Translations under genes and position numbers: made by a program
Notes under the pieces: generated by a model
Databases searched by the model: none
The model's input: the letters and a program-made list of their open reading frames with translations, nothing else
What the model was told of the DNA's origin: nothing
From: Octopus vulgaris
Lineage: Eukaryota
Reading direction: 5' to 3'
Length of the DNA stretch: 64,000 bases
NCBI GenBank assembly: GCA_951406725.2
Contig: OX597816.1
Span: 163,990,001-164,054,000, forward strand
Shown here: positions 6,447-55,870 of the stretch, in pieces
Numbering within the stretch: the first letter of the stretch is position 1
Layout: each line of letters starts with the position of its first letter

Positions 6447-6600
6447 AGTTGAAAGTTATGACAAAACAAAAGATGAAGTCAGGTGTATGAACAACAGGCA
6501 AGTGTATTAGTTTGACGAAAGAAAGTCTTTACGTTTCGAGCCTACGCTCTTCAACAGAAACGAATAGAAAAATAAACGCATAGAGTTCAGTGGTCCAACA
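6447..6600 (-). mobile_element. Repeat family E copy 1 (Penelope-related non-coding element with hammerhead-like motif)
   Basis: GTATTAGT...AAAGTCTTTACGTTTCGAGCCTACGCTCTTCAACAGAAA is shared with the copies at 20218, 43828 and 55671. Confidence 0.75.
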
Positions 6601-9660: not shown

Positions 9661-10522
9661 CTAGTTTCAGCTCACGAGCTGTGGCCATGCTGGGGCACCG
9701 CCGGTTGGTGTTGATACATAATTTTACTTCACGAATGCTTTTTAGGTATTGACATTTGGTGCATAAGGGAGTTTGATGCCGCTACCCTCATCTGCATCTC
9801 CTGCCGCGAAGTCGGATTATCTCGGACACTTGACAGTGAGCGGTCCAGCTTTATTTTGAAGACACCTACCTCCACCCCATGGAGGTCTCTCAGGTCCTTC
9901 GGGAGGATATTAAAGGGCTATGGACCTCTGAAGCCCAGGCGATTGCAGTATCTTGTCCTATATCTTGATGGCAAATTTGGAGTTCATGGCACTATGCAGT
10001 GGCGCCCAGTTCTAGTATCTGCGTAACTCTCGATGCCAAAGTTTGGGGCAAGTCCTTCCAGGATGTTCCATATTCTATGGCATACCTTTCTCGCCTACGC
10101 TCTAAGGAATAGAGTCTTAATCTCTTTCCCAGTAGCTTATATGCTGCACAGGGGCTATCATTTTCGTGTAGCTTTGTTTGATTGCCTCAAGTTCTGAGAT
10201 TAATTTGACACTGGTTGGTGACATAGCCGAGAGCAATAGTGAAAATGGCTTAGGACAAGTGTCCTCCAGAGGACCATCATGGTTTCCTGATTTTTTGTTT
10301 TAAAAGTTCTAAGAATCCATCCGGTAAGCCGCCTGCATTTCATTGCCAATTTAGCAACATGCACATGGAAGGAGGCATCATTACTCATGTAAATACCCAG
10401 GTCTCGCACTGAGTGTTCCTCTGGGATTGCAATCCCTCCAGGTCCACAGTATTTAATGGATATTGCATTTAGTTGTGCATGCTGATAGCATAAAGCTTGA
10501 AACTTTTCAGCATTAAACTGTA
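9661..10522 (-). mobile_element. CR1/L2-group LINE, 3' part of ORF2 and 3'UTR (decayed)
   Basis: QFNAEKFQAL...SVRDLGIYMSNDASFHVHV...WILRTF...LWRTLVLSHFHYCS; homologous to 18496-19674. Confidence 0.9.
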
Positions 10523-10578
<56 letters not shown>

Positions 10579-10579
<1 letters not shown>

Positions 10580-11702
10580 TACTACTTGACCGTCCAAAAT
10601 CGCAGTTAAACCTTTGGGTGTTGAGAGTCATCTTTGCTTATTTCTCATCCCCCTTAGTGCCACCCTCTGTACAAAATTGATCAGCGTGTCAAATCTCAGC
10701 AAAATCCGAAGAAAAGTTTTAAGGTTATGCCATAAAATAGAATCCATGCGGCCATTTACAGGAAAATATCCCATTGACTTAAATCCCAATACATTATATA
10801 ATTGATGTTTCATATGTCGAGCTGCTTAATTTTACTCAGGGGTCAATTGTCTTCAAAATCAGTTCATTATTTTATTGTGAGTGAATTTTGACGATAATTT
10901 TTTCAATTATTTAATTTTAATTCTACTACATGACTCCGACCATAAACTTTACTTCAATGTCAAATTTCCTCAAAATCGGATGAATTCTGTAAAAGGTACA
11001 GCATAAAAGATTAATCTTATGGATAATTGCATACAAAAAGCCTATTGATTTCTTAAAATCCCTTGCTCACGCGCAATTATCGACGCACAGTTTTTGTCAA
11101 CTCTTCATGCTGGCATCAACTAGTGGACATGAACTGTAATCAAGTGTAAAATTTCTAAAAATCTATAAGTATGTCTCCAAGGAGAAATTTTATTTGCATT
11201 TGTGCCCATTTCAAGCCCTTTTGAATTAAATAGTTACCTTTACCGTCTCCCCCACCATGAAATTTCATTAAAATCCGATAAAAATATAAAAGTTACGGCC
11301 TAAAATATAATCCTTATAGGTATTCGCACGAGAAAAGCTTATTGATTTTATAAAAACACTGCTCAGGCGCAATTATCAAATTTTTTTTGCCAACGCCATA
11401 TACTGACATCAACTCACTGCCATGAGCCTCGCTCACTCATCGAATTTTATCTAAATCGGACAAAAAAGGCAAAAGCTGCAAGAAAAATAACATCGTTATG
11501 GGAATTTCCATTCAAACGCCTGATTGAGCTCACAAAAATCGATGCCAACTGAGCATTATCTAGTTTTCAAAAAATTCCGGCCTTATTTGAACTTCAGAGC
11601 ATGTGATCTACCTATGTACCAAAAATCATTAAAATCGGTTGGAAGAGTTAGAGTAACCCAAACCCACGCACACAGAGACACCATTACACATATTTATATA
11701 GA
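10579..11702 (-). mobile_element. Non-autonomous Helitron-like element with internal diverged tandem units
   Basis: The minus strand starts A|TCTATATAAAT, and its CAACCGATTTTAATGATTTTTGGTAC core resembles the 14581 Helitron. AAATTTC..AAAATC(C/G)G units recur near 10690, 10960, 11145, 11260, 11445 and 11625. The 3' CTAG is not intact. Confidence 0.55.
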
Positions 11703-18495: not shown

Positions 18496-19670
18496 AAATC
18501 CTTAAATCCTTTAAAATATTTTAGCCCGAAGGCCGCGGCCATGCTGGGGCACCACCGCTGAATGAGCTACACTAATGTGTGAATCCACCTCTGATACGTG
18601 GCACTTGATCAACAAGGGAGTTCGATGCTGCTGCCCGCATCTGCGTCTCCTGTCGTGAGGTAGGTTCATCTGGGACTCCCGACAAGAAGAGATCCAGTTT
18701 AGTTTTAAAGAAACCCAGATCCACACCATGTAAGTCTCTCAGGCATTTAGGGAGGATGTTAAAGAGTTGTGGTCCTCTGAAACCCAAGCTGTTGCAGTAT
18801 CTAGACCTGTATTTTGATGGTGATGTTGGAATCTTTGGCACCATGCAGTGGCGCCCCGTTCTGCGGTTGGGGTAACTTTGAACGCCAAAGTTTGGGACAA
18901 GACCCTCCAGGATTTTCCAGATGTATATCACCGCATATCTCTCCCGCCTCCGCTCTAGAGAGAAGAGGTTTAATACTTTCAGTCTTTCCCAGTAGCTGAT
19001 ATTTTGCATTGAGACGATTTTCTATGTGTAGCTTCTCTGAATTGCTTCGAGTTCTGCTTTTAATTTTATATTGTGTGGTGACCATAGTTGGGAGCAGTAG
19101 TCCAAGCGGCTGAGGACGAATGTTTTCCATAGGACCATCAGTGTCTCCTTCTCTCTTGTTCTGAAAGTTCGGAGAATCCATCTAGCTAGCCGTCTGCATT
19201 TTATCACCAGATTAGTAATATGCAATTGGAAAGATGCATCATTGCTCATGTCAATGCCCAGGTCACGCACTGATTTTGACTCAGGGATTGCAATTCTTCC
19301 TGGGCCAGTGTATCCAGTCTGCACGTCGTTTACCTTTGTGCGCCGGTAGCGCAGGGCCTGGAACTTACCTGCATTAAACTGCATGTTGTTGTCCTCAGCC
19401 CACCTGTATATTGTGTCCAACTCCTGTTGCAGATGTGCAATATTTTCAGGGTTTTATATTGTATGGGAGACTTTTGTGTCATCTGCATAGCTAGCAAGGG
19501 TGGCCATCGTAGCAACTGAAGGCATGTCTGAAAGGGCCACTATGAACATCAGTGGCCCCAAGACAGTGCCCTGTGGGACACCGCTTGTTATTTGTGTTTC
19601 CTTGGAGGTGGCTCCATTGCTCACAACTGCCTGTCTTCTGTTTTTTAGGAAGTTGTGCAGCCACTCTCCA

Positions 19671-19759: not shown

Positions 19760-20217
19760 ATACTCTTACATATATATGTGTGTGTGTGTATATGCATGTA
19801 TATAAATATCTAAATATTTACACATGCAGGAACACACAGACAGACACACACACACACACTCACACACACACTCACACATTGCAAACATAATTATGACGAA
19901 GTAAAAAAAAATGTGTATTAGATTTACGCTCAGGAAACAAATGTGTATGTGTGTGCGAGCTTACGTGTGTGCGTAGTTATATGCATGTACTCATATATAT
20001 ATAGACACGCACATGTCTACTTATTTCCTAACACTTGATATATAATTTCATTAGCAACACATTTAAACTTGAAATAACAAACGGTCGTACCAACCCTAAG
20101 ATCGAAAACGAGGATATATATACATATACTTGCATGCATGTATACAGATATATATATATATATGTATCTTAAATATATGTATATATCTTTGGATGCATGG
20201 ATATATATATATATATA

Positions 20218-20395
20218 GGGAGAATTCATAGAAAAAACAAAAGACAAAGACAGGTGGTGTAGACAACAAACAGATGTATTAGTATAACGCTCGGGAAGTG
20301 AAAAAGTCTTTAACGTTTCGAGCCTACGCTCTTTCACAGAAAGGAACACAGAAAGAAACAGGGAGAGAAAATAAAGAATGTATAGTGGCTAGTGA
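20218..20395 (-). mobile_element. Repeat family E copy 2 (hammerhead-like motif at 20306-20347)
   Basis: GGGAGAATTCA..AAAAGAC.AAGACAGGTGGTGTA..AACGTTTCGAGCCTACGCTCTT; abuts (TA)n. Confidence 0.8.
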
Positions 20396-20577
20396 TACAG
20401 ATGTACGTTAAGAAGCTTGCTTCTCAACCACATCGTTCCGTGTTCAGTCCCACTGCGTGGAAACTTGGGCAAGTGTCTTCTGCAATAGCCTTGTGAGTGG
20501 CATACATAAACAGATATCTTTATAGAATTAAAAGTTTTCCTTATATATTGATGTATTTATGTATGTGTATGTATGAA

Positions 20578-28740: not shown

Positions 28741-29374
28741 TATATATATATTATGATATATGGACTCATGCATTGGTTTCTATAACTTCCGAAAGTTGAA
28801 GTATGACCCTTTATGCTTCCTTTTTCCTGTCTCTTTCCATACCTTATTCTTTTGCTCCCTTTCTCTATGTTGTCATCTTGTTGATATATACCTTTCTCAT
28901 TTTCCATATTTTTTCCTTTCTCTCTCTCTGATGACGGAATATCCCATACTCGGGAATATCCCAGAAACGGCATTATGATTTTGAATTTCTTCCTATAATA
29001 ATATTGTAAATGGCCTTGAGATATTTGCGTTGCCTTAATGTTTGCCGTCCTGTCTAACAATCAAACGCGTGCGTGCGTGCGCGCGCGCGCGCGCGCGCGT
29101 GTGTGTGTGTGTATGTGTGTATGTGTGTGTGTATGTGTGTGTGTGTGTGTGTATAATTAATGAAAAAGACGTGGGTAAAAAAGACAAGAAAAAACAACGC
29201 GAGGACGTTTTACATGCAAAATATTAATAAGACGCTCAGAGAGGGAAAGAATAGGTGGTTGTTTTGCGTTTCAAGCGAAGCTGTTCTTCGGAAGTAGGAG
29301 ACATAGGAAAGTCCAAAAGAAAAGGAAGAAGGAGGAAAGAAATCTCCAACAGTCCACGTGAAGTTACATTTTGG

Positions 29375-32231: not shown

Positions 32232-33400
32232 GTGCGCAATATCTCTCGGGTTGTGTATCCTCTGAGAGACTTTTGTGTTATGGGTGTTGTTAGCAAGGTA
32301 GGCTATCTGAACAGCATAGCATGTCTGAGAGGGTCACTATGATTAGCAATGATCCCACGATAGGGTCATGTGGGACACCAGTCATTATTTGTGTTACCTT
32401 GGAGATGACTCCGTTGGCCACCGTTGGTCCCGTAATCATTCAAACGTACTTATTCAAACACAGTTAAACACACAGTCACATATACATAACAGAATAACAC
32501 ACACAATGTCAAAGACCACCACTACTTGACCTCTATCTTTTAGAAAGTCATGTAGCCATTCTCCGAGTTGTCGAGCTATGCCAAGATTCATCATCATCAT
32601 TGTTCGACCGTGGTCGAGACAATGGAACTTACTATGTTACACCAGACTTCACGGTCCATCATATCATTACGGAGGTCCTGTTGCTGGATGTCTGTATCCC
32701 TGGATATTACATCAGGGTAGGAGCGTGTGCGCCCTCTGTAGATGGCTTCCAGAGGAAAAGAGCAGAAATTACCTCGTTTTCAGCTCTACAACAATGTCCA
32801 GCAAACTGAACTTGTCTACCTTTCACAAGAGATGATACAGGTTATAGTTTCCCATATATTTGTACTTTGGTTGGATAACGCTTCCGCGAGAGATTTTCAG
32901 CTCTCATAAGGAGGCGGGTGTAAGTTCCATCCAACCGCCTCTCAAGCTTCTTTGATAACGTCCAGGTTTCTGAGCCATATAGTAGAATTGGTTCGACTGT
33001 GGCTTTGAAGATTTTAAGTTTGTAATCTCTACTTAAGATTACGCAGCTTCTGACCTATCATACCATGGTCGACTTTATCAAAGTCTTTTGCAAAGTCGCG
33101 ATATATCACGTTCACATTGGAGTTGTTGGGTAGCTGCTTTAGCACCCAGTTGTAGTGCTGCAAAAGCTGTGTCAAGCAGCATCTACCTGGTCGAAAACCA
33201 TGCTGGGTATCAGTAAGCATGCCATTCTCTTTAAGGAATGCAATTAGTTTCCTTCGGACTATTCGTTCCATGATTTCGGAGATGTGTGAAGTCAGACATA
33301 ATATATAGACCCACAGTTTTTTAGCATCTGTTCTGCTTCCTCCTTTATTATTAGGATAGATTATTCCTTCTTTCAGTTTCCCTGCAGAGATATTTGATTC
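32232..33400 (-). mobile_element. CR1/L2-group LINE RT fragment interrupted by two insertions
   Basis: LTSHISEIMERIVR..QHGFRPGRCCLTQLL..DFAKDFDKVDHG..KLRNL | GIARQLGEWLHDFLKDRGQVVV | ANGVISKVTQIMTGVP. Confidence 0.85.
32589..33034 (-). mobile_element. RTE-like LINE 3' fragment with (ATG)n tail and 6-bp TSD
   Basis: KIFKATVEPILLYGSETWTLSKKLERRLDGTYTRLL..QFAGHC..MMDREVW; AAGATT at 32583-32588 and 33035-33040. Confidence 0.88.
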
Positions 33401-33637
33401 CTGAAACGGAATGCAATTAAGTGTTTCACCGATGATACGTTGCAATTACGCTCAAAATTCTGAGTTCCAAATAACTGCAGTGGTGAAACGTGCGTAGGGT
33501 CTAATCTATCTGTCTGTCTGTCTATCTATCTATCAACCTATCTATCTGTCCCTGTGTGTCTGACTGCCTGTCTATCTGTCTATGTGTGTTTGCGTATATA
33601 CGCGCGCGCATGCGCACACACATATATACATACATAT

Positions 33638-43651: not shown

Positions 43652-44372
43652 GACGCAAAAGTAGCTGCATGGTTAAGAAGCTTGGTTTCCAGCCAGGTGG
43701 TTTCGTGTTCAGTCCTACATCGTGGTATCCTGGGTGAGCGTCTTCTACTAAAGCCTCGAGTTGATCAAGGCATTGTGGGTGAATTAGGTAGACAGAAACT
43801 GAGAGAAGCCAGTCGTATACATACATAGGGAGAGTTTACGAAAAAAACAAAAGACGAAGACAGGTGGTGTACAAAACAAACAGATGTATTAGTATAACGC
43901 TCAGGAATAAAAAAAGTCTTTTACGTTTCGAGCCTACGCTCTTCTACAGAAAGGGACACAGAAAAAACAAGGAAAGAAACAAGGAGAGAAAAAATGGAGA
44001 GAAAAACAAGGAGAGAAAAAAATGTGTGTAGTGGCTAACGATCTATCATGGCGACTGTATGTATCATGTATTCATACATACATACATATCTGTCTGTCTG
44101 TTAGTCTGTCTATAGACAGACAGACAGATAAATATGTGCATGATTGACTTGACATTAGGTGATGATTGTAAACGACTACCACCGTCAAACAAGTGATGTT
44201 GTTTGCTTCCAGTCTTTCATAACAAAAAAAATAATAAAGATGTCTGCATGGAAGCGGGTGGGGTTAAGGGGACGGGAAGAATTATCCGGCCATAGAATAT
44301 CTGCCTCAACGAGAGCCATCTGATCCATACAGACGTAGAAAAGTGGACGTTAAGATGACGATGACGTTGATG
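43652..44372 (+). mobile_element. Diverged SINE A-type head (43652-43820) and RTE-type tail (about 44140-44372) split by an element E insertion
   Basis: Head blocks seen; tail reads ATCCGGCCATAGAA...GAAAAGTGGACGTTAAGATGACGATG. Confidence 0.6.
43828..44053 (-). mobile_element. Repeat family E copy 3 (hammerhead-like motif at 43916-43957)
   Basis: Minus strand reads GUCCCUUU-CUGUAGA-A-GAGC-GUAG-GCUC-GAAA-CG-UA-AAAGAC. Confidence 0.8.
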
Positions 44373-55670: not shown

Positions 55671-55671
<1 letters not shown>

Positions 55672-55864
55672 GGAGAATTCACAAAAAAAAAAAACGAAAG
55701 ACGCAGACAGGTGGTTTAGACAACAAATAGATGCATTAGTATAACGCGCGGGAAGTGAAAAAGTCTTTAACGTTTCGAGCCTACGATCTTCGTAGAAAGG
55801 AACACAGAAAGAAACAAGGAGATAAAATAAAGAATGTGTAGTGGCTAGCGATCTATCATGGCGA
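55671..55864 (-). mobile_element. Repeat family E copy 4
   Basis: Same sequence as 20218 and 43828; (TA)n on both sides. Confidence 0.8.
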
Positions 55865-55870
55865 ATTTAG

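Follow-up and report, generated by a model that had tools for sequence, protein, structure and literature searches.

Nearly all Penelope-like elements (PLEs) carry hammerhead motifs, which cut weakly in vitro and, in the sole system that has been reconstituted, are not needed for insertion. The metazoan minimal hammerheads are already weak cutters in vitro (Cervera and de la Pena 2014, PMC4209133). In Anolis, the hammerhead of Poseidon_Ac is reported to cut only in the presence of protein, the insertion substrate is uncut RNA, on which reverse transcription initiates internally, and catalytic mutants are without effect on insertion in vitro (Frangieh et al. 2024, PMC11167929). In a type III hammerhead, every single change in the CUGA turn led to low activity, and among the double mutants only the C3/G8 swap gave rescue (PMC9901934). 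Natural variants of this turn include A6C, which cuts slowly (kobs below 0.1/min), and a viroid U4C, which stays infectious (Perreault et al. 2011, PMC3088659). For the hammerheads of viral UTRs, weak cutting has been argued to balance intact against processed RNA (PMC13725137). Among PLEs, a Cys-rich Zn-finger-like linker between RT and EN is the mark of Neptune and Nematis, and the pseudo-LTRs (pLTRs) of Penelope contain the transcription start site (Craig et al. 2021, PMC8557442). The octopus lineage described here has been active recently; selection has maintained its hammerhead fold, and yet a substitution that is predicted to cripple catalysis has become fixed.

We analysed a stretch of 64,000 nt from contig OX597816.1 of Octopus vulgaris (hereafter, the window), in which a first-pass annotation had placed four minus-strand copies of a short element, starting at 6447, 20218, 43828 and 55671. 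All four were recovered by a window scan with a 19-nt motif, which matched each of them with 0-1 mismatch and gave one further weak match (3 mismatches) at 10084; the chance expectation was 0.00 (100 shuffles). Three subfamilies are represented among the four copies. Copy 1 (6447..6585, minus strand) belongs to an old subfamily, with the core CUGUUGA at 6557-6551 and a damaged helix I. Copies 2 (20215..20397) and 4 (55671..55866), both on the minus strand, belong to the G7 subfamily; the core of the former, CUGUGAA at 20339-20333, combines U6 with G8A, which breaks C3-G8, while in the latter both the core and helix II are damaged and long (TA)n flanks the copy at either end. Copy 3 (43828..44056, minus strand) belongs to the A7 subfamily and is the 5′-truncated pLTR end of a Neptune-clade PLE. 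U6 is present in copies 1-3, and the site is GUA in copies 1 and 3 and GUU in copies 2 and 4, so the earlier reading of U6 in three copies and of GUU in copies 2 and 4 stands on the sequence. Helix II, described as preserved across the copies, is intact in copy 3 and not in copy 4.

In copy 3, the predicted minimal type I hammerhead occupies 43918..43953 of the minus strand and reads CUUU, the core CUGUAGA, an extra A, GAGC-GUAG-GCUC, GAAA-CG-U-A and AAAG. The 5′ strand of helix I is placed at 43953-43950, the core at 43949-43943 with U6 at 43946, the extra A at 43942, helix II at 43941-43930, GAAA at 43929-43926, the palindromic ACGU at 43926-43923, H17 at 43922 with the predicted cut 3′ of it, and the 3′ strand of helix I at 43921-43918. 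The features of the minimal type I hammerhead are all found, i.e., helices I and II, an extra base after A9, a palindromic ACGU and an NUH site. The core, helix II, ACGU and GUA site are those first described; the register of helix I had to be changed, and in place of a bulged GUC-CC-UUU helix the subfamilies conserve a 4-bp CUUU/AAAG helix. The folding energy of the 61-nt regions was no better than that of shuffled sequences (z -0.66 to +0.43), and an Rfam scan of copy 3 alone found no hammerhead match; thus, the hammerhead call rests on the motif and its conservation among subfamilies.

The density of the element was 6 copies per 200 kb in 20 arbitrarily placed 10-kb stretches, and four copies per 64 kb is an ordinary density for this genome. 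The same figure suggests a genome load of about 80,000 copies, with a wide error. Genome-wide, 8,476 copies lie in the forward and 8,381 in the reverse orientation; therefore, the shared minus strand of the four window copies looks like chance. In the window, a repeat finder returned microsatellites only, and microsatellite miRNA matches dominated an Rfam scan, among the 150 of 532 matches listed. No host gene or PLE ORF was found within the window, and no host gene exon was recognised. By eye, minus-strand fragments at 10200-10637, 18572-19453 and 33029-33445 resemble LINE-type RT frames.

The parent of these copies was sought in the 2.8-Gb genome. Used as a DNA query, copy 2 yielded 2,800 candidates, of which 40 were scored; 3 of 30 loci from this search extend further 5′, and L022 runs into a GIY-YIG frame at its C-terminal end. 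A search with the 97-aa GIY-YIG piece gave 8,048 candidates, of which 150 were scored. In 25 of 30 loci chosen for GIY-YIG, a hammerhead lies 302-993 nt downstream of the ORF end, and it carries U6 in 25/25, with C (13), U (6), A (4) or G (2) at N7. A layout of hammerhead, ORF and hammerhead was present in 5 of 20 fetched long-ORF regions (L101, L102, L103, L115 and L120), with full-length units of 4.4-4.6 kb in the four that were measured (L101, L102, L103 and L115); the full-length copies carry the hammerhead in both pLTRs. In L102, L103 and L115, the 5′ and 3′ pLTRs share 99.7-99.9% identity over 645-1035 nt, which shows that copying of the PLE is recent; in L101, they share 88.8%.

The open frame of L101, 1098 aa long (968 aa from the first Met), comprises RT, linker and GIY-YIG, and it matches Pfam RVT_1 with an E-value of 8e-8. 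In L102, the GIY-YIG match (E 0.0057) falls under the Pfam cut-off; nevertheless, the motif is clear in the translation. The GIY-YIG is preceded by a CSRPCCRTC linker of the CxxxCCxxC type, comparable to the Neptune rows in the PMC8557442 supplement. We assign the element to the Neptune clade by this motif only, and Nematis has the same linker. The organisation is that of an EN+ PLE, i.e., a single ORF with RT and C-terminal GIY-YIG within partial-tandem pLTRs. A protein homologue search returned 726 relatives; of the 120 matches listed, most lack a name, and the best are 52-58% identical. In L101, a pyrimidine-rich leader of about 610 nt (L101:2413-3026), open in frame for 130 codons and possibly an intron, separates the 5′ pLTR from the first ATG. 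More distant PLE-like frames at L109:1638-2396, L174:2126-3028 and L207:2190-3014, 26-29% identical to the protein of this family (family A), represent other families of the same genome.

The window copies are 5′-truncated pLTR ends of an autonomous PLE with RT, Zn-finger linker and GIY-YIG. Copy 3 is 97% identical over 174 nt to a copy linked to GIY-YIG (L073), and the copies are dispersed and continuous with the PLE 3′ UTR and ORF, an organisation that does not fit a non-LTR retrozyme or SINE. The Penelope-type minimal type I hammerhead was therefore correctly recognised in the first-pass annotation, since the GIY-YIG-linked loci and the copies with two hammerheads carry the motif, and the PLE sharing the sequence that it had proposed to look for exists, with an RT/GIY-YIG ORF flanked by the same hammerhead. 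Its further proposal, a separate non-autonomous element, has to be abandoned. That the 200-nt copies could be such an element, a SINE or retrozyme borrowing Penelope RT, is suggested by the shortness of most copies and the clustering of their 5′ ends (33/86); we regard it as very improbable, because every main subfamily is also attached to a GIY-YIG ORF end, the lengths are continuous up to full length and the copies examined are dispersed and not in tandem arrays. Among 138 copies, we saw no short-copy subfamily with diagnostic changes missing from all ORF-linked copies.

The core CUGANGA...GAAA with A6, expected of a minimal type I hammerhead, is not the form found in this family. Based on exact 26-mer counts in the genome (16,568 in total), U6 occurs in 15,954 and any other base in 614. 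The first 100 of these 614 have C (70), A (20) or G (10), spread across all N7 states, as decay of copies of a U master should produce. Genome-wide, 50 exact matches to the canonical form CUGAUGA were counted. In old-subfamily rows chosen by flank sequence only, U6 is present in 27 of 30, the other 3 being truncated before the core, and among 86 copies chosen by their downstream flank it is present in 69 of 72 detectable motifs (2 A, 1 G). In contigs of four DNA runs with four organism labels, variants at 5% or more were seen at N7 (3/4 runs), at H17, at one CpG and at one helix I base, and none was seen at U6. A6U is fixed lineage-wide, and the earlier view that it was already in the amplifying master agrees with these counts and with the ORF-linked loci.

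All 44 legible motifs of the 56 in Fig. S3 of PMC4209133 have A6, although the search descriptor used there fixed the catalytic boxes. Among the entries listed from the PMC8557442 supplement, those from octopus belong to Naiads, and a search of that supplement did not find the helix II motif. Literature searches showed no description of A6U in a PLE among the papers listed. A6U is a well-supported and apparently unpublished fixed core variant of a known element and motif type.

Two further hammerhead families occur in the genome. Family B, a sister family with a homologous pLTR, has the helix II loop UCC (L156, L151, L155; about 1500) and 12,135 exact matches; the first 100 of these mostly have the core CCGACGA (U4C), and other subfamilies keep CUGACGA. 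Its youngest-looking copies combine U4C with a helix I mismatch, which suggests relaxed catalysis. A diverged relative of family B lies in the window at 29193-29348 (minus strand). No coding partner of family B was found in the loci of this genome that were examined. Family C (L211-L240 and L331-L360; e.g., L238 at about 1360-1620) has a canonical minimal hammerhead after an (AAT)n spacer and 6,180 exact matches, many of which form inverted pairs. By eye, its head is tRNA-like with A- and B-box-like motifs, while none of 8 loci gave an ARAGORN tRNA call; the family resembles a Pol III SINE that carries a PLE-type tail. The idea that all hammerhead families here have broken U-turns is ruled out by the canonical core of family C.

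To compare the ribozyme with its surroundings, as had been proposed for helices I and II, we clustered 138 copies, each with a 22-mer match of no more than 3 mismatches, by flank columns alone; clusters of 5 or more copies supplied the consensuses for comparison, smaller clusters and 20 loci chosen for A6 (L031-L050) being left out. Among the six subfamily consensuses, which are 1-14% diverged, 2 of 36 columns vary in the ribozyme and 56 of 131 in the flanks (p 9e-6 by a Fisher test, which treats the columns as independent although they are not). The ribozyme is thus far more conserved than its flanks, and the downstream flank alone gives 30 variable columns of 90 (p 0.001). Whichever of the four clustering levels is taken, the two ribozyme columns that vary are N7 and H17, with all four bases at N7 and U, A and C, never G, at H17; these are the free positions of the published hammerhead consensus (PMC4209133, Fig. 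S3), and N7 also wobbles in the canonical-core family C. The chance that C3, G8, G12 and U16.1, the most catalysis-specific bases, would all stay invariant at the flank rate is about 1 in 10, and loop II (GUAG) varies no more than the catalytic bases do. The outer helix I pair, C-G in family A, is G-C or G-U in family B, in one event seen in five rows. In 10 sequences, 98.8% of cells are paired, with one compensatory pair, and family B keeps the helix II sequence under its different loop.

Because the ribozyme columns vary far less than the flanks and the exceptions are those free in canonical hammerheads, the fold is under selection with U6 in place. The same comparison bears on the view that the motif is a dead relic carried neutrally, its uniformity reflecting shared ancestry only. 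The free decay of individual copies once inserted and the lack of a folding signal above shuffles agree with such a relic; nevertheless, 43% of the flank columns changed among the same masters, which largely refutes it, and we give it hardly any weight. The invariance of loop II also fits recognition of a specific sequence by protein or DNA. In the pyrimidine tract of most subfamilies, motifs complementary to the loop (CUAC/CUGC to GUAG) occur 45-55 nt upstream of the family A core, and GGA, complementary to the UCC loop, occurs about 25 nt upstream of the family B core. These motifs could form a pseudoknot and are absent from two family A subfamilies.

The ends of the 86 copies chosen by downstream flank were mapped. 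No copy (0/86) has its start in the 10 nt around the predicted cut, on either side, and 77/86 start upstream of it; thus, the inserted copies derive from uncut RNA. In the canonical-core control family, 0/30 ends fall at its own predicted cut site, so uncut templates do not single out U6, and the absence of 5′ ends at the cut site as proof that U6 is dead is ruled out. The 5′ ends cluster at a hot spot marked by CGCCATG (44047..44053 on the minus strand in copy 3), a motif conserved in all subfamilies and found with no more than 1 mismatch in 20 of 21 reference copies: 33/86 copies start within -8 to +5 of it, at a per-base rate of 0.049 vs 0.006-0.010 just downstream. Transcription would start in the pLTR near this motif, which we take to resemble a YY1 site. 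By eye, the 5′ ends of family B copies seem to lie about as far from the cut site, on another sequence.

The 3′ ends lie about 114 nt downstream of the cut site, where full-length copies read TTATATAT before (TA)n, and (TA)3 is near the 3′ end in 71 of 86 copies. In copy 3, the element runs into TA-rich target DNA at 43816..43830 (minus strand), the likely start of reverse transcription; the microsatellites into which the 3′ ends had been said to run are here reduced to a TATG run of just 12 nt. Copy lengths form a continuum up to full length. This pattern is consistent with reverse transcription that begins internally on uncut RNA, in the manner shown for Poseidon_Ac. A splice acceptor at the polypyrimidine tract or at the AG of loop II was considered and rejected, there being no conserved donor and no GT-AG joint in four contig runs (501 nt). 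Sequence runs guessed to be RNA span the junction of pLTR and 5′ UTR and were not counted as evidence of expression.

Taken together, the window copies are truncated PLE pLTR ends, and we consider it likely, with a probability of roughly 0.55, that their conserved A6U minimal hammerhead is a slowed ribozyme that depends on dimer formation or on protein. Transcription would start some 105 nt upstream of the cut site, within the pLTR, and RT would prime on nicked (TA)n and copy from about 114 nt downstream of that site; the abundant 200-nt copies would arise when priming takes place in the 5′ pLTR, and the longer ones when it takes place in the 3′ pLTR. The slowed ribozyme would cut a small share of the transcripts, as an ACGU dimer or with the help of the protein of the element, and such weak cutting would spare the uncut template yet keep an occasional processing step, a rationale adopted from the balance argument for viral UTR hammerheads. 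Residual activity is favoured by the conservation pattern, the slow natural A6C, the infectious U4C viroid and the protein-assisted cutting in Anolis, whereas from the published mutagenesis a substitution at position 6 is expected to leave little activity. Somewhat more tentatively, and at less than even odds, A6U may have been selected as a working core, in which the CUGA U-turn is broken to tune cleavage down or to impose dependence on protein, a state retained over the entire history of the subfamilies, the sister lineage having taken the same path via U4C. If true, Penelope hammerheads are tuned rheostats between intact template and processed RNA.

Against the slowed ribozyme, folding predicts that two separate monomers are more stable than the active dimer. 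A rod in which U4-G5-U6 pairs with ACG could lock the U6 monomer in an inactive form; in a short context, its pair probability is 0.34-0.98 with U6 vs 0.00-0.23 with A6. This rod is absent in 3 of 5 wider contexts, is worth 0.2-2.1 kcal/mol and is not shared by U4C, and on these grounds it was set aside and is kept as a weak lead.

Given the low activity of CUGA-turn mutants and the weakness of minimal hammerheads, A6U may abolish cutting altogether. The fold could then be kept as a non-catalytic signal, such as an RT/EN binding site or a part of the pLTR promoter or 5′ UTR, with U6 as a tolerated knock-out. The lack of copies starting at the cut site, the normal insertion of the Anolis catalytic mutants in vitro (PMC11167929), the invariant loop II, the CUGA-turn mutants (PMC9901934) and the fixation of U4C in the sister family would all suit this account; we nevertheless hold this main rival to be less likely than not, as the sole variable columns are those free in active hammerheads, H17 avoids G, and the canonical control leaves no ends at its site either. 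The opposite account, a fully active U6 rescued by dimerisation, a tertiary contact of loop II or protein, would explain the strong conservation across a long subfamily history, and loop II is invariant and could pair, by eye, with the upstream CUAC/CUGC in most subfamilies. It is improbable: no double mutant but the C3/G8 swap restored the CUGA turn (PMC9901934), a compensating core change is absent here, and efficient cutting would destroy the 5′ pLTR template. The slowed ribozyme thus remains our preferred reading. A genome with an A6U family, U4C and U4 sister subfamilies and a canonical family offers a natural series for asking whether cutting or the fold is selected, and in genomes of this kind a search descriptor with CUGANGA held constant overlooks motifs by the tens of thousands.

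Compared with known systems, the octopus motif is closest to the minimal type I hammerheads of PLE pLTRs (PMC4209133), with which it shares the place in both pLTRs, a short helix I, the extra base after A9, the G10.1-C11.1 pair, a palindromic CG between 15.1 and 16.1, the NUH site, a U-rich 5′ flank and mostly dispersed single copies. The difference lies in position 6, A there and U in octopus; the core variant reported there is U3-A8. With the Neptune EN+ PLEs (PMC8557442), the element shares a single ORF with RT, Cys-rich Zn-finger-like linker and C-terminal GIY-YIG, as well as partial-tandem pLTRs and an insertion bias to (TA)n, whereas its long C-rich 3′ UTR (0.3-1 kb) and non-canonical hammerhead core set it apart. 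Poseidon_Ac (PMC11167929) has in common the pLTR hammerhead, the uncut inserted template, and a fixed copy end downstream of the hammerhead in AT-rich DNA; it belongs to another clade, and its ORF starts inside the hammerhead, whereas the first ATG in octopus is about 750 nt downstream. The animal non-LTR retrozymes (bioRxiv 10.64898/2026.07.22.740005) share a PLE-related type I hammerhead but are non-coding tandem arrays, whereas the octopus copies are dispersed ends of a coding element. Finally, A6C of phage Bcep176 and U4C of a viroid (PMC3088659) are likewise natural substitutions of the CUGA turn with low detectable activity; these are rare single cases in full-size ribozymes, whereas the octopus A6U is fixed in tens of thousands of minimal ones.
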